A stretch of 16,544 nucleotides of DNA from a virus (taxonomy: Duplodnaviria; Heunggongvirae; Uroviricota; Caudoviricetes), in the IMG/VR virus record IMGVR_UViG_2695420569_000027; one strand, written 5' to 3'. Position 1 is the first letter of the stretch; the number at the start of each line of letters is the position of its first letter. The notes under the pieces are model-generated. The model did no database searches, was not told the DNA's origin, and worked only from the letters and a program-made list of their open reading frames with translations. The translations under genes were made by a program, and so were the position numbers. Positions 2,790 through 16,544 of this stretch are shown piece after piece.

Positions 2790-3071
2790 TTACCGCCGCA
2801 ACCGCTCCGGCTTCTTCCAGTGGTACGTTATTTTCTCCTTCTCCCGATACATCTCCACGCGGCGACGGTAGGCCAGCAACTCAAGAACTCTGGTTCGTAT
2901 GTTGCGCATATCCACGCCATTAAGTTCTATACCATCACGGCGCATCACCTCAGCAACAACACGCGCATAGTTTTCGGCTGTCACGCTGTCCGGCTGCGTG
3001 GCCTGTTCGTCAGCCTGCTGGCTGATTCCGGCAACGCGGCGGATTAATCCCGTTATTTCGGCTTCTGTCAT
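2790..3071 (-). CDS. Hypothetical protein (93 aa) immediately downstream of terL
   Basis: ATG at 3071 with GAGG about 9 nt upstream; 13-nt gap after the terL stop. No family recognised. Confidence 0.4.
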   Translation of the reverse strand: MTEAEITGLIRRVAGISQQADEQATQPDSVTAENYARVVAEVMRRDGIELNGVDMRNIRTRVLELLAYRRRVEMYREKEKITYHWKKPERLRR

Positions 3072-3084
3072 GCTGCTGACCTCA

Positions 3085-4746
3085 TTACACCCCGCTAAAT
3101 TCTTCCAGTTTCTGGCGGTGGCTGTCGCTTATATCAAAAGCAAAATCCTCATGCTCTGCCTGGAATGTACCAAACGCCATCAGCGCCGCCACGCTCGGGT
3201 CTATCTTGTTCGGTGATTTTTTCTTGTTCGGCTTGATATTGGCGTTCGCGTCACTCTGCATCACGACGTTACTCATCGACCAGGACAACACCGGATCGCC
3301 ACGATGCACAATCACCCTGCGGTTAACAAAAACTTCGAACGATTTCGCCGCCGGACTGAATCTGAGGTAGGTTTGCGGGAACGGCTCCACCTCAAAACCT
3401 GCCCCCTGTAATTGCGTTCTGAGATGCGTGGCGTTCCACGTATCAAAGCCCACCAGCCTGATATTAAATTTCTCCGCGTCCTGCATGATGTCATCTCTGA
3501 TCCGGTCGTAATCAATGCAGTCGCCAGGCGTTGTGCGTATCCAGCCTGCTTTAGCCCACTGACGATAGATGGCGCGGTTTTTATTGGCGGGGTTCTGTAG
3601 CTGGAACTCCGGCAGATAATGACGGGAAACCAGCATAATGGTTTTACCTACCGGAAAGGCATAGCACACGCTGGAAATATCGCTTGTGGATGATAAATCC
3701 AGCCCCGCGTAACACTCCTGGCCGTGTAAATCTTCCTCCGTGAACGTTCCGGCACACTCAGCCCATGCGCCGTTACCCATCCACGGGGTAGTCCCCTGAC
3801 ACCAGATATTAAATCGCTTTGTCATCATCTCCACCCACTGCGACGGAATACCCCGCGCTTTCTGGATGGTTGAGGCCAGTTTTTCACGATCCACGGAAAC
3901 ATCAATATTAGGGTTCGCCTTTATCCACATCGCCGGATCATCAACCTCGTTTTCGTCGTCCAGTTCGTAAATCAGTACAAAAATTGAATCGTTAACCTCT
4001 TCGCCGTCCAGGATCTGGCAGCAATAATCATAGTGCTGCTTACAGGCTGAAACGACGTTGCTGCCTGATGTGGTAATGGCAAATAACAGCCCTTCGGGAC
4101 GTGCGCCCATCCCCAGCTCAAGCGCGGAATAAACGCCGTTATCGGGGTGCAAGTGGTATTCGTCCACGATGGAAAGGCTGGGGTTTGTTCCCTCGATGGT
4201 TGCCGCTTTTGCTGCCAGCGGCTTTAACAGGCTGTTGCTTTTCGGGTGTATCACCTTATGCGCCTGAATATTCACCCGCCTGCGTAACGGTCGGGATAAA
4301 AGGCACATCTGACGCGCATCATCAAAGACGATCCGCGCCTGGTCACGGCTCACCGCTGCGGTGTAGATATCCTGCTGACCGTTCTCCATAATCAGAAACC
4401 AGTTAGCCAGAATCGCGGCGGTCGTTGATTTCGCATTTTTGCGCGGCACTTCGATAAAGGCGCTCGTATATTTGCGCCGTCCGGTGGCCTTAACCTTAAA
4501 GCCGAGGATGCACGCAAAGGCGAACTGCTGCCACGGCTCCAGCTCAATGGGTCTGCCACGCATCGGCCCTTTTACGTGCGGGCACACCCTGGAAAAGGCA
4601 ATAAACCGATCCACAACCTCACGATCGAACGTGTAAAGGGGGCTTTTAAGGTCCGAAAAGTACCGTTTAACGGCCTGTTTCAGCCGTTTACAGGCCGGAA
4701 TTTTGCCCGTTTTTACGTCTTCTGCGTACTTATTCCAGGCGGTCAA
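3085..4746 (-). CDS. terL: Terminase large subunit (TerL), HK97-like
   Basis: 553 aa; N-terminal ATPase with a Walker A-like motif (VPRKNAKST) and a C-terminal nuclease region typical of Terminase_1-type TerL. The start is TTG at 4746 with GAGGA 5 nt upstream, overlapping the terS 3' end by 17 nt. Confidence 0.92.
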   Translation of the reverse strand: MTAWNKYAEDVKTGKIPACKRLKQAVKRYFSDLKSPLYTFDREVVDRFIAFSRVCPHVKGPMRGRPIELEPWQQFAFACILGFKVKATGRRKYTSAFIEVPRKNAKSTTAAILANWFLIMENGQQDIYTAAVSRDQARIVFDDARQMCLLSRPLRRRVNIQAHKVIHPKSNSLLKPLAAKAATIEGTNPSLSIVDEYHLHPDNGVYSALELGMGARPEGLLFAITTSGSNVVSACKQHYDYCCQILDGEEVNDSIFVLIYELDDENEVDDPAMWIKANPNIDVSVDREKLASTIQKARGIPSQWVEMMTKRFNIWCQGTTPWMGNGAWAECAGTFTEEDLHGQECYAGLDLSSTSDISSVCYAFPVGKTIMLVSRHYLPEFQLQNPANKNRAIYRQWAKAGWIRTTPGDCIDYDRIRDDIMQDAEKFNIRLVGFDTWNATHLRTQLQGAGFEVEPFPQTYLRFSPAAKSFEVFVNRRVIVHRGDPVLSWSMSNVVMQSDANANIKPNKKKSPNKIDPSVAALMAFGTFQAEHEDFAFDISDSHRQKLEEFSGV

Positions 4747-13565: not shown

Positions 13566-13767
13566 AAAGCATCCCCTGAATATTCGTGTTAATCATTCCG
13601 GCACGTTTTGTGATTTCCTGTAATGATTCCCTTGTGGCGACAATTGCTTCATCTGGTAAGTGGTAATTACACACCACGCGACCTTTATCCACATTGACCA
13701 GTAGCTGCCCTGTGAATTTCTCACGAAACTGAATGCGGTTAAGGTCAGTAAGTGACAGATTAATCAT
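13555..13767 (-). CDS. Hypothetical protein (~70 aa)
   Basis: Start at the internal ATG at 13767 (MINLSL...) with AGGAGG 6 nt upstream; the track ORF extends further upstream. Confidence 0.45.
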   Translation of the reverse strand: MINLSLTDLNRIQFREKFTGQLLVNVDKGRVVCNYHLPDEAIVATRESLQEITKRAGMINTNIQGMLYAQ

Positions 13768-13957
13768 GGCGCACCTCCTGACGAATACGGGCGGCAAATA
13801 CAGCAACACAACCGGACGGGCAACGGTTACGCGCTTCGCGTTCCGTCCAGGCGGTTACGTGGATGATTTGAGATTCTCCGGCACTCAGTGCCAGAAAACG
13901 CCACACAAAGGCCGTTTGTGTGTGTACAAGGTGTGGTATATGATTTACGGCAACCAT
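13760..13957 (-). CDS. Small hypothetical protein (~65 aa), first gene of the minus-strand early operon
   Basis: ATG at 13957 preceded by AGGAG 5 nt upstream; the stop overlaps the next start. The remainder of the 314-aa track ORF upstream is judged spurious. Confidence 0.3.
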   Translation of the reverse strand: MVAVNHIPHLVHTQTAFVWRFLALSAGESQIIHVTAWTEREARNRCPSGCVAVFAARIRQEVRHD

Positions 13958-14045
13958 AACGGCTCCTAGTTTACGTTGTTGGTTAGACGCCCCGTATGTG
14001 TTCCCAGCACTGCGGGGCGTTGATTTTTGTGTAATGGCAAGTACA

Positions 14046-14090
14046 ATGGTAATTACCATGTAGGTATAGTAATAAAGGGTAATTACCATG
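14046..14090. promoter_or_regulatory. Paired palindromic operators (GGTAATTACC core) overlapping the divergent promoter region
   Basis: ATGGTAATTACCAT at 14046-14059 is a perfect 14-bp palindrome; GGTAATTACC recurs at 14078-14087 directly before the ATG at 14088 (30 bp centre to centre). A TATAGT -10-like hexamer at 14065-14070 lies between them. Confidence 0.5.
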
Positions 14091-14261
14091 TCAACACCAT
14101 TAGAAAAACGTTCGCCTCCATACCAAATGCGATTACCGGAAGACTTCAGAGCGCAGCTAGAAGAAGCAGCTAAGGCCGATGGCGACACATCTTTAGCCAC
14201 TTGGATTAAACGCGTTCTCCGCAAAGAATTACAGCAACGCGGCATAGAACCCAAAGGATAA
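14088..14261 (+). CDS. Arc/MetJ-type ribbon-helix-helix DNA-binding protein (57 aa), putative repressor
   Basis: Not in the ORF track (under 60 aa). MSTPLEKRSPPYQMRLPEDFRAQLEEAAKADGDTSLATWIKRVLRKELQQRGIEPKG has the beta-strand/helix/helix pattern of Arc-like repressors, and the start codon is embedded in the operator palindrome. Confidence 0.6.
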   Translation: MSTPLEKRSPPYQMRLPEDFRAQLEEAAKADGDTSLATWIKRVLRKELQQRGIEPKG

Positions 14262-14318
14262 AAACTATCAGCGCCGTGGTGTGAGGTATTACGGCGCATT
14301 GCTATGCAGGACAACACA

Positions 14319-14492
14319 ATGACCGATAAAGAATTGACCAAAACATTATCACCGGCACGGAAAAGACGGCGCAGAAAGATAGAGCATGAATCAGAAAGAT
14401 TCGCGCCATGTGCTTTTGCCCTTGAGCAATTCCTTAAAGAGTACAGGGAAACGCGCCCATTGCAGGTATGGCAACGAACTGAACCAGACTGA
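14319..14492 (+). CDS. Small basic protein (57 aa), co-oriented with the RHH gene
   Basis: Internal ATG at 14319 with AGGA 8 nt upstream (MTDKELTKTLSPARKRRRRKIEH...). No family recognised; it may be non-coding. Confidence 0.3.
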   Translation: MTDKELTKTLSPARKRRRRKIEHESERFAPCAFALEQFLKEYRETRPLQVWQRTEPD

Positions 14493-14587
14493 TAGCATTG
14501 CCCACCAGCCTGATAGCGGCTATCATCCCCGTGCTTATGTTTGGGATCATATACACATAAGGCGCAGCGGGTTATCTGTTCAGAAAG

Positions 14588-14615
14588 GCGGCTCCATTTC
14601 GGGGCCGCTTTTTTT
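14588..14615 (+). terminator. Rho-independent terminator for the plus-strand RHH module
   Basis: GCGGCUCC-AUUUC-GGGGCCGC (8-bp stem with one G-U pair) followed by seven T. Confidence 0.55.
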
Positions 14616-14761
14616 ATGCCTGAAAAACCCCAATTTTGTGGTTTTCCAGTCTCACCAGGGCGAACGAATCCCCGCCCACGTTCTGGCGTATATTCAATCT
14701 TCATGGTTATAGCTCTGTGTTCAGATGATTGATGTGTGGCGGCTGTGTGCCGCCAGCGTGA

Positions 14762-14950
14762 TTAATGAACTGCCTTGCAGCTATCCTTCCAGGCCAGAAC
14801 CTCGGATAAAGACCAGCCAACGGAACGACCGCCAAGTTTACGACGTGATGGGAATTGTCCGGCCTTTTCCAGGCGGTAGCGACACGTACGGCTAAGGCCG
14901 GTTAGTTTTTCGCATTCTTTTTCACGTATAAACCGATCAGTGCTTAACAC
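14762..14950 (-). CDS. alpA: AlpA-family transcriptional regulator / excisionase-like protein
   Basis: 62 aa; EKLTGLSRTCRYRLEKAGQFPSRRKLGGRSVGWSLSEVLAWK matches the AlpA (Phage_AlpA) winged-helix signature. GTG start with GGGGG upstream. Confidence 0.88.
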   Translation of the reverse strand: MLSTDRFIREKECEKLTGLSRTCRYRLEKAGQFPSRRKLGGRSVGWSLSEVLAWKDSCKAVH

Positions 14951-15314: not shown

Positions 15315-16544
15315 TTATTTTCTTCTGGCTACTGGTAGCGTGGTTACGTTTTCATGTGTTCCCGCCAGTATCCCTAACCGCTCCGTCCACATATCCAGCG
15401 CATTGCGTTTCGCATCCAGATAACGGGAATGATTATAAACTCGCTGCATTCCTGGCATCTGGTGGCCTGTAAGCTGCTCCACGACATGCGGATCAACGCC
15501 TAAATCGTTCAGCATGGTTGTAAAGGTGCGCCGGATGTCATGCAGTGACCAGTGAGGGTGATTAAGCCTCCTGTGCGCTAATCTTCCATACTGCGATACG
15601 CTGGCCTCCTGTTTCACTTCCCCCAGCAATAAGCCCGTGTGCCTGTTCTGCTCCACCAGCTGCGTGATGAACGGCAGTATTGCTTCCGGTATAGGCCGGA
15701 ATATGGCTACCTTCGTTTTGCTGTGCTCCTTCGGAACGGTCCAGAGCATTTCGGTAAAATCCCACTCGCTGATCTCCGATAACCTCAGTTCTACCGTCCG
15801 GCATCCGAACACAATCAGGAGGCGGATTAACGCGATGTAGTAGGGGGAGAATATTTTTTTGTCCAGTGCCTGCAATAATTCGCCCAGTTCTTTGGTGCTT
15901 AAGACACGCTCGCTTATATCCGGTTTTTTCCCAACGTCCGCCACACTCATATCATCAAGAACGTTGCTGATTGCATAGCGCCGCCTCCGGCAGAACTTAA
16001 GCGCCTGTTTGCACGTCTGTAGCAAGAATCCGGCAGTAACAGGCGTTCGCTTTGCCACCTGGTCAAAACAGGCCAGCCAGTGCCGTAGCTCGCATTTATC
16101 CAGCGGCATAGCACCAATGTGCTGTATTACGTGATTATTAAGGCGCTTTTTCAGGGCGGCATAATCCACGCGGTTTTCCTTTGCGTACGACTCAAGCCAG
16201 TAGGTGAGCGCATCGCCAACCGTTACCGGCTTTAACGCTTCCTGTACGGTGTAATTAAGCTCATGACGTGGATTTTTCCCCTCTGCCAGCCATGCGCGAC
16301 ACTGGGCGGCTTTTTCCCTGGCTGATTTCAGGCTCAGATCAGGATAATTTCCCAGCTTAATGCGTTCCGGTGGTGCCCCCCTTCCCGTTCCGGCCCTGTA
16401 AGTGAAATACCAGGTTAAAAGGCCACTGGTTGAATGCCTGACGCTCAGGTTTCCACCGTCATTAAGAAAGGCTGTTTTTTGGGCGGGTGTGCCGTTGATT
16501 TTCCTCAGCTGTGTATCGCTCAGTTTGTTAAGTGCTCTGCTCAT
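15315..16544 (-). CDS. int: Tyrosine integrase, P4-type (N-terminal arm-binding domain)
   Basis: 409 aa; the start codon is the final three bases of the window. N-terminal arm-DNA-binding-like region (LSVRHSTSGLLTWYFTYR) and catalytic residues in the C-terminal half (HDIRRTF, then Y in VYNHSRYL). Confidence 0.93.
   Translation of the reverse strand: MSRALNKLSDTQLRKINGTPAQKTAFLNDGGNLSVRHSTSGLLTWYFTYRAGTGRGAPPERIKLGNYPDLSLKSAREKAAQCRAWLAEGKNPRHELNYTVQEALKPVTVGDALTYWLESYAKENRVDYAALKKRLNNHVIQHIGAMPLDKCELRHWLACFDQVAKRTPVTAGFLLQTCKQALKFCRRRRYAISNVLDDMSVADVGKKPDISERVLSTKELGELLQALDKKIFSPYYIALIRLLIVFGCRTVELRLSEISEWDFTEMLWTVPKEHSKTKVAIFRPIPEAILPFITQLVEQNRHTGLLLGEVKQEASVSQYGRLAHRRLNHPHWSLHDIRRTFTTMLNDLGVDPHVVEQLTGHQMPGMQRVYNHSRYLDAKRNALDMWTERLGILAGTHENVTTLPVARRK

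Follow-up and report, generated by a model that had tools for sequence, protein, structure and literature searches.

The immI region of phage P22 combines two ribbon-helix-helix (RHH) repressors, Arc and Mnt, with the overlapping, face-to-face promoters Pant and Pmnt and with the antisense RNA sar. In the phage-inducible chromosomal islands (PICIs) of Gram-positive bacteria, such as the Staphylococcus aureus pathogenicity islands (SaPIs), the repressors Stl and Rpr are larger helix-turn-helix proteins that are inactivated by proteins of the helper phage, and in phage P1 a block of icd translation causes polarity on the downstream genes. Since 2018, the presence of a global repressor in the PICIs of Gram-negative bacteria has been called unclear, AlpA being an activator (PMC6092414), and RNAs of the C4/isrK type have been reported for some of these islands (PMC10111431). 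The first-pass annotation of the DNA studied here had started from AlpA-activated islands without an Stl-like master repressor, a premise that agrees with this literature. We analysed a stretch of 16,544 nucleotides (IMG/VR record IMGVR_UViG_2695420569_000027, hereafter the window) and in particular the region between an Icd-like gene and alpA (positions 13,958 to 14,761), which carries a gene for a small Arc-like RHH protein. We propose that this region is the maintenance (immunity-like) switch of a capsid-forming PICI (cf-PICI).

In the proposed switch, the Arc-like protein would bind as dimers to two operators, O1 and O2, which lie about three helical turns apart. O2 would be situated in the spacer of the leftward promoter PL beside its -35 box, and O1 would cover the PL start site together with the -10/+1 region of the RHH gene promoter. 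Because of these positions on both promoters, occupancy of O1 and O2 would shut off the operon of Icd-like, replication and packaging genes and would at the same time autoregulate the repressor. A constitutive plus-strand RNA of ~80 nt, fully complementary to the 5' untranslated region (UTR), the Shine-Dalgarno sequence and the start codon of the Icd-like gene, would form a second layer and either block translation of the leftward transcript or lead to its cleavage. The repressor mRNA would also carry a second open reading frame, ORF2, and would end at a one-way terminator before the convergent alpA gene.

Among the described systems, this switch would work most like the immI region of P22. 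In both, a small Arc-type RHH repressor has its operators inside two overlapping, opposed promoters, autoregulates its own synthesis and represses the opposing operon, and the leading gene of the repressed operon has its ribosome-binding site covered by a small antisense RNA; the regulation and the RNA are predictions at our locus. The two differ in several respects. There are two RHH genes in P22 and one here, and the P22 operator is a single 21-bp site, whereas two separate palindromes of 10-14 bp are found here ~30 bp apart. The repressed operon encodes an antirepressor in P22 but an Icd-like protein and satellite replication and packaging functions here, and the similarity of the RHH protein to Arc remains below the Pfam threshold.

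The Arc-like gene and its predicted operators

A 57-aa gene of the Arc/MetJ type, pointing away from the early operon, had been called by the first-pass annotation, and the corresponding ORF is present on the plus strand (Table 1). Its homologues form 93 clusters in the protein database, nearly all of them 57 aa long, with 20 invariant columns in the protein alignment. They come from at least 10 genera (Escherichia, Salmonella, Enterobacter, Yersinia, Xenorhabdus, Photorhabdus, Serratia, Pantoea, Pasteurella, Aeromonas, Oceanimonas, Gilliamella and others) and range over the Enterobacterales, the Pasteurellaceae, Aeromonas, Oceanimonas and Gilliamella. Among 26 distinct ungapped DNA sequences of the gene, codon positions 1, 2 and 3 carry 27, 13 and 60% of the pairwise differences, and because of this pattern we regard it as one real plus-frame gene that appears to be under purifying selection. 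In the Photorhabdus loci L033-L037, two copies of the RHH gene lie ~1.2 kb apart (about 1630-1940 and 2851-3156), and in L034-L037 the RNA motif described below precedes both copies, which suggests tandem modules or tandem islands.

The predicted fold of the product is RHH-like. Its AlphaFold2 (AF2) model consists of an extended N-terminus and two helices at residues 18-31 and 36-50 (mean predicted local distance difference test, pLDDT, 77); the beta-strand of the RHH fold can form only in the dimer, and the model shows that part as the extended N-terminus. All 44 of the 44 Foldseek matches in the PDB are RHH proteins (TM 0.45-0.61), including AmrZ, NikR, Arc, CopG and the antitoxins CopASO, MazE9, VapB and AtaR, with E values above 1 throughout because the protein is so small. 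The closest solved structure is AmrZ of Pseudomonas aeruginosa (PDB 3qoq; 37% identity over 38 aligned residues, rmsd 1.3 Å), a match that is not statistically significant, and AmrZ differs in that it regulates globally from the chromosome and has an oligomerisation domain at its C-terminus. When the sequences of the PDB were searched with a profile, designed helical repeats came up, which are a composition artefact, and AmrZ as the only RHH protein (weak, E 0.82). The profile searches that the first-pass annotation had suggested for both small proteins matched the RHH protein to PHROG 228, 'Arc-like repressor' (E 1.5e-6), and Arc was the top Pfam family in 9 of 25 members of the RHH family (best E 2.5e-4). 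Neither the RHH protein nor ORF2 nor any of five leftward-operon products that were searched had a match in PADLOC.

The twin palindromes that had been placed on the start codon and 30 bp upstream of it are exact copies of GGTAATTACC at 14048-14057 and 14078-14087, 30 bp from start to start, and the identity of the repeat stretches to 14 bases, GGTAATTACCATGT. With at most one mismatch, GGTAATTACC is found three times in the whole window, where 0.41 matches are expected; the third, GGTAATTACA at 13662-13671 (+), lies ~390 bp into the leftward operon and may be a distal site or a chance match. The promoter of the leftward operon had been expected in the same region, and a near-consensus candidate is indeed located there. 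In a promoter scan, PL and the RHH gene promoter face each other across the palindromes. O1 and O2 bracket the -10 box of PL, and its -35 box, TTGACA, corresponds on the other strand to the first codons of the RHH gene (ATG TCA A..).

A scan of genome contigs for the RHH gene yielded 60 loci from other genera, and the same layout is near-universal among them. A palindrome abuts the start codon and a second one lies 27-35 bp upstream, mostly 30-31 bp, the two sites recurring in about 50 of the loci. A TTGACA box in the first codons and a TAnnnT box between the palindromes, with a spacing of 16-18 nt, agree with the consensus at 10-11 of 12 positions in most loci, and in many of them the upstream palindrome is directly adjoined by a plus-strand TAnAAT box. 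The second codon, a serine, is TCA in all 39 distinct sequences of the RHH gene, including those with GTG or TTG starts, and selection must therefore act on the DNA itself. Operators and promoter motifs are thus conserved, and their geometry looks like that of a classic repressor.

The operator variants also change along with the predicted DNA-reading strand of the protein. Proteins with YQMRL or FQMRL are paired with GGTAATTACC, those with FPMRL with GGTATATACC, those with YQ[IL]RL with TGTAATTACA and those with FQFRL with GTGTAATTACAC-like sites, an association that we take as supportive but not as conclusive. On this evidence, binding of the RHH protein to the palindromes, with repression of the leftward promoter, seems to us reasonably probable.

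In other E. coli PICIs, it is genes for YlcI/YnfO proteins (NCBIfam NF041551) that lie in this slot between the Icd-like operon and alpA, likewise co-oriented with ORF2 and preceded by the same RNA motif. These proteins align collinearly with the RHH protein, which scores 18.7 bits (E 1.4e-3) against NF041551, whose cut-off is 30 bits; an hhalign comparison of the RHH family with the YlcI/YnfO proteins of E. coli PICIs was collinear but not significant (probability 4%, E 0.01). Read by eye, the YlcI/YnfO-type loci have palindromic repeats of their own around a TTGACG box. These operators are unlike in sequence and three in number, e.g. GTGTTGAACAC three times, whereas the RHH locus has two. 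Repressor-operator 'immunity' types may therefore be exchangeable within the slot.

A predicted structured RNA opposite the Icd-like leader

Just upstream of the RHH gene promoter we found a conserved element that consists of GGTYAGA, a long hairpin and a T-rich tract (13981-14032). It would be part of an RNA with a 5' hairpin, whose loop carries an anti-Shine-Dalgarno sequence, and an intrinsic terminator made up of a hairpin at 13986-14021 and a U-rich tail. In an alignment of 33 loci, RNAalifold predicted 13 pairs, 10 of them with compensatory changes. A three-helix structure specified by hand comprises 23 pairs, of which 15 show double (compensatory) changes, and is paired to 93%; none of 500 shuffles equalled this value and slid controls reached at most 48%. 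The alignment contains 57 G-U pairs but only 8 A-C pairs, and 10 nt of the tail after the stem contain 6.1 T when read on the plus strand versus 1.3 on the minus strand. Because of this excess of G-U pairs and the T-rich tail on the plus strand only, the structure is best explained as a plus-strand RNA that ends in an intrinsic terminator. Reading the 13986-14021 hairpin as a minus-strand C4- or CI-like RNA in the icd leader was considered and rejected, since the G-U pairs and the U-tail belong to the plus strand.

The predicted RNA (~13951-14032) has a folding energy of -33.6 kcal/mol (z -3.8). A covariance model built on it finds one copy in the window (13950-14041, 67 bits) and also matches held-out loci, including all YlcI/YnfO-type E. 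coli islands and Pmp8, a packaged element of Pasteurella. No Rfam family was found for it (whole window, E <= 1; 13900-14100, E <= 10), the only matches being noise (GlsR14, CRISPR-DR32, ZFAT-AS1), and the covariance models of C4 (RF01695) and isrK (RF01394) gave no match within the same limits. A blastn search of the regulatory DNA against phages gave no match either. The RNA would thus be a conserved, covarying element without an Rfam family that occurs in every island type examined. Some E. coli islands hold two copies of the motif (L065, at 725-815 and 1471-1563, and L066), each followed by a small plus-strand gene. The gene order in these two islands, YlcI/YnfO, a 59-aa hypothetical protein and the ORF2 homologue, looks like a duplicated or recombined regulatory module.

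The predicted promoter of the RNA overlaps the beginning of the Icd-like coding sequence. The best promoter-like site on the plus strand has, in about half of the unique loci, a -10 box that ends 36-37 nt before GGTYAGA, which is 10 nt before the CAT of the opposing start codon, and a TAnnnT box is visible at this position in most of the remaining loci. We infer that the RNA is transcribed from here. The arrangement resembles the immI region of P1 and P7 (C4 RNA-icd-ant) and the CI RNA of P4, in that an Icd-family gene heads the controlled operon and the RNA targets its translation start. The RNA described here would differ from C4 and CI in being cis-antisense, in having its own terminator and in not being processed from a leader; it lies on the other strand and belongs to another family.

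Table 1. Features between the Icd-like gene and alpA, in positions of the window
Feature	Position	Strand	Basis and remarks
Icd-like gene, 65 aa; no gene is recognisable before it in the leftward operon	13760-13957	-	NCBIfam NF033153 E 5e-18; PHROG 29966/1743; PGAP-annotated in an identical genome
Antisense RNA promoter (predicted)	13916-13944	+	TTGTGT, 17-nt spacer, TATGAT; within the first Icd-like codons; tentative
Structured RNA, ~80 nt (predicted)	13950-14032	+	Antisense to Shine-Dalgarno sequence, start codon and most of the Icd-like 5' UTR; covariation, folding, covariance model
Stop-free frame bridging alpA and icd	13958-14761	-	Part of a mechanical 314-aa ORF at 13760-14704; antisense to the RHH gene, ORF2, the operators and both terminators
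RHH gene promoter (predicted)	14020-14047	+	TTGATT, 16-nt spacer, TACAAT; 9/12 match; -10 abuts and overlaps O1
Operator O1 (predicted)	14046-14059		Perfect 14-bp palindrome ATGGTAATTACCAT; at ~+1 of PL and -10/+1 of the RHH gene promoter
Leftward promoter PL (predicted)	14066-14094	-	TTGACA (14094-14089), 17-nt spacer, TACTAT (14071-14066); 10/12 match
Operator O2 (predicted)	14078-14087		GGTAATTACC; within the PL spacer, immediately 5' of the RHH ATG
RHH (Arc-like) gene, 57 aa, candidate repressor	14088-14261	+	Homologues, codon pattern, AF2 model, Foldseek, PHROG 228
ORF2, 57-aa basic protein, E. coli/Shigella-specific	14319-14492	+	phrog_21027 E 3e-16
Terminator of the RHH-ORF2 transcript (predicted intrinsic)	14583-14615	+	Stem and 7 T; -22.4 kcal/mol
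alpA, 62 aa	14762-14950	-	Pfam PF05930 E 5e-17; convergent with the RHH-ORF2 unit

How far the repressor reading carries

Several observations weigh against the RHH protein as the repressor of the island. The Shine-Dalgarno sequence of its gene is weak, and with 14.3 bits (E 0.038) the protein does not reach the gathering threshold of 20.4 bits of the Pfam family Arc (PF03869), so that we file it as a predicted RHH fold, Arc-like, but not as a certified member of that family. The association of operators and reading strands is not conclusive because both are inherited by clade, and hence is no independent proof, and because at least one locus is a partial exception to the pairing (L030, with a YQMRL protein but TGTAATTACA at O1). 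On the opposite strand runs a significantly open frame, and it is this frame that is taken for a gene in RefSeq. Induction of PICIs and cf-PICIs strictly needs AlpA and a helper phage (PMC6092414; 10.1101/2022.09.08.507074), and PL and its repressor may be a secondary rather than a master control.

The position of the gene fits a master repressor. It lies at the junction with the replication and packaging operon and is divergently transcribed, as is typical of repressors of the Stl/Rpr type, which in Gram-positive PICIs and SaPIs are found between the integrase side and the replication and packaging genes and are transcribed oppositely (PMC6092414). The differences are the RHH fold and the orientation of the neighbours: here, integrase and alpA are co-oriented with the operon and only the small RHH unit is inverted. 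Since induction is known to require AlpA, we are less confident of this role than of repression at PL, and regard a master repressor in the sense of Stl as a possibility that falls short of being probable. The repressor reading of the first-pass annotation is supported by conservation, coding pattern, fold and the recurring operator geometry; the word 'master' stays tentative.

The strongest competitor is that the RHH protein would only be a local autoregulator of an accessory cassette of RHH gene and ORF2, e.g. a moron or a helper interference function, and that the operon would depend for its expression on AlpA-activated read-through from the alpA promoter alone. In the published systems, induction requires AlpA and can be brought about by it alone (PMC6092414; 10.1101/2022.09.08.507074), O1 overlaps the RHH gene's own promoter, and the cf-PICI literature describes the slot as a variable region of unknown function (10.1101/2025.02.11.637232). 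We nevertheless consider it unlikely. The leftward promoter is conserved as TTGACA-17-TAnnnT at 10-11 of 12 positions in most loci, with its -35 box fixed by the invariant TCA codon and O2 within its spacer, and many genera have no cassette to regulate, the RHH gene being a single gene with a terminator of its own.

The second competitor takes the long minus-strand ORF ('Icd-like / Ash family', 314 aa here) for the real gene and the plus-strand ORFs for its shadows. The first-pass annotation had let a minus-strand operon begin at 13957. An ATG is found there that starts the Icd-like gene, but the same frame runs on without a stop to the alpA stop at 14762. From this stop to the icd start there are no stop codons over 804 nt, where 8.5 are expected (P < 2e-4), and the non-coding parts alone give P = 0.001 for the lack of stops. 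The frame is open in all 10 of the 10 loci with alpA directly downstream, though first gene, operators and terminator differ, and in each of them it is fused to icd or ends near the icd start. Gene callers predict this long ORF in 951 clusters with names such as 'Icd-like' and 'Ash family', and in an identical genome the Prokaryotic Genome Annotation Pipeline (PGAP) gives a minus-strand pseudogene and leaves out the RHH gene and ORF2. RefSeq/PGAP labels this pseudogene 'Icd-like' or 'BRO-N' (14111-14704 (-) of the window, and loci L001, L063 and L064). In loci with a variant terminator (L064, L067, L069), the long ORF has an ATG with a strong Shine-Dalgarno sequence right after alpA (TAAAGGGGAGCATATG), which would suit translational coupling to alpA.

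As a protein, however, the minus frame is not convincing, and we think it very improbable that it is the real gene. Substitutions in the RHH gene fit a single plus-frame gene. The frame is broken in genera without an adjacent alpA, and the RHH gene is conserved where the frame is broken, as in Yersinia and Pectobacterium. Its product would contain 4.4% Cys, 12% Ser and 2% Glu, and outside the Icd part no family match was found in Pfam, NCBIfam or PHROG. In the stretch without a plus-strand gene, synonymous and non-synonymous changes stand at ~4:8 and are spread evenly over the codon positions, so that no amino-acid constraint was detected where no plus-strand gene overlaps. Codon-usage log-odds did not separate plus and minus frames over sequences of this shortness. 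Strand specificity is seen in the RNA motif and in both plus-strand terminators. Expression may come from both strands, and as a working idea we suggest that the open frame could be kept translatable so that AlpA-driven read-through crosses the inverted cassette without Rho-dependent termination.

The role of ORF2 bears on a last alternative. Mechanically, it extends from 14304 to 14492 (62 aa), but the PHROG match and the family alignment start at Met6, and counted from there it is the second 57-aa basic ORF of the first-pass annotation (pI 9.7). It has 38 clusters of homologues, all from E. coli or Shigella, in which the core, ESERFAPCAFALE.FLKEY, is conserved, the ends vary and indels stay in frame; codon position 2 is the least variable. 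ORF2 probably is a real small basic protein, and only some RefSeq genomes have it annotated as a plus-strand gene. AF2 models it with low to moderate confidence (pLDDT 69) as a hairpin of two helices, too small and uncertain for a fold search, and a tblastn search against phage genomes gave no match.

The strong intrinsic terminator that had been noted after the second ORF has a GC-rich stem at 14588-14608, which A-U pairs extend to 14583-14613, followed by seven T; the folding energy is much lower on the plus strand than on the minus strand (-14.6 kcal/mol), which lacks a U tail. Other E. coli islands have an unlike hairpin at the same place, GGCGACCGC...CGGTCGCC followed by TTTGTTTT. Both terminators, this one and that of the RNA, are conserved as features. 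At the 3' end of ORF2 (14483-14530, +), the direct repeats ACCAGACTGATAGC and ACCAGCCTGATAGC, 21 bp apart, are followed by a small inverted repeat, GATAGCGGCTATC; this segment is conserved in related E. coli islands and could be a protein-binding site, e.g. for AlpA or integrase.

ORF2 is not tied to the RHH gene. It is absent beside it in all 60 loci of other genera; in many of these the RHH gene is monocistronic, no second ORF being present and a terminator lying 30-48 nt past its stop codon. Among E. coli genomes, those with the ORF2 segment outnumber those with the RHH gene by ~900. At seven ORF2 loci without the RHH gene, it lies downstream of 59-aa or 101-aa genes of the YlcI/YnfO type, directly in five cases and after an extra module in two, and altogether ORF2 was found behind at least three different first genes in E. 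coli. ORF2 would therefore best be seen as an accessory passenger on the repressor transcript. That RHH gene and ORF2 are instead a type II toxin-antitoxin (addiction) pair by which the island would be stabilised, as the first-pass annotation had offered as an option, is the least probable of the explanations and was rejected: the RHH fold is common among antitoxins, which figure among the Foldseek matches, homologues are labelled 'HicB family antitoxin' in some database sources and two small co-oriented ORFs precede a terminator, but the first gene before ORF2 shifts, a 57-nt gap separates the two ORFs, Pfam, NCBIfam and PADLOC searches matched ORF2 to no toxin or defence family, and helix 2 of the RHH protein ends at residue 50, leaving a 7-residue tail and no C-terminal toxin-neutralising extension.

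The island and the meaning of the switch

The window represents an island in the chromosome of E. coli, with phoQ (593-2053, +) on one side and a tyrosine integrase gene (15315-16544, -), to which alpA is adjacent, on the other. Its minus-strand genes encode TerL, TerS, an HNH protein, a head closure protein, portal, protease, major capsid protein, single-stranded DNA-binding protein (SSB), a RepA-type helicase, a DUF4222 protein and the Icd-like protein. Because of the set of TerL, TerS, portal, protease, capsid, RepA-type helicase, integrase and AlpA, the island is a cf-PICI. A GC-rich hairpin, GGCGGCTGTGTGCCGCC, is located just past the alpA stop on the minus strand (14737-14757) and has no U-tract.

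Over the region under study, genomes of O55:H7 and O145 match the window with 100% identity and those of O157:H7 with 99.7%. In one genome that is identical over 13700-14800 (L001), the island is ~3.4 kb shorter between phoQ and that point, and its packaging annotation is unlike that of the window, with a head decoration protein and with TerL and portal not annotated. The regulatory module is therefore common to islands with unlike packaging modules. The Pasteurella element Pmp8 has the same gene order as the window, its RHH gene being annotated as hypothetical. In Xenorhabdus, a P4 alpha-like primase gene follows directly behind the leftward promoter, a place that is taken by Icd-like genes in other genera.

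Taken together, our data may point to a three-part maintenance switch in Gram-negative PICIs, cf-PICIs and P4-like islands, an overall picture that we consider possible rather than probable. An exchangeable RHH-type repressor, the 57-aa family here and YlcI/YnfO types elsewhere, would act on matching operators on the leftward promoter. The cis-antisense RNA would be the second part. The third would be the stop-free minus frame, by which read-through transcripts would stay translated, and hence protected from Rho, across the inverted cassette. The RHH protein would then be the 'missing' master repressor, and induction by AlpA would work by running over and silencing the cassette.

A search of the literature on RHH or master repressors in Gram-negative satellites, on the function of YlcI/YnfO and on the operator string returned nothing relevant, and no paper describing a module of RHH gene, operators and RNA was found in the searchable literature. 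RefSeq annotates a minus-strand 'Icd-like' gene or pseudogene over the region in the inspected genomes and omits the RHH gene; the candidate regulator has therefore been hidden by annotation. Our analysis supplies a concrete repressor candidate for Gram-negative PICIs, with exact coordinates of its predicted operators and promoters, and a conserved, uncatalogued RNA with strong covariation, in a module that is present in at least 10 genera. Given the near identity of the O157:H7 genomes over the region, the prototype EcCIEDL933 would be a natural test system if it carries the module. The candidate switch opens the way to tests of how satellites stay silent and why their induction is helper-specific.

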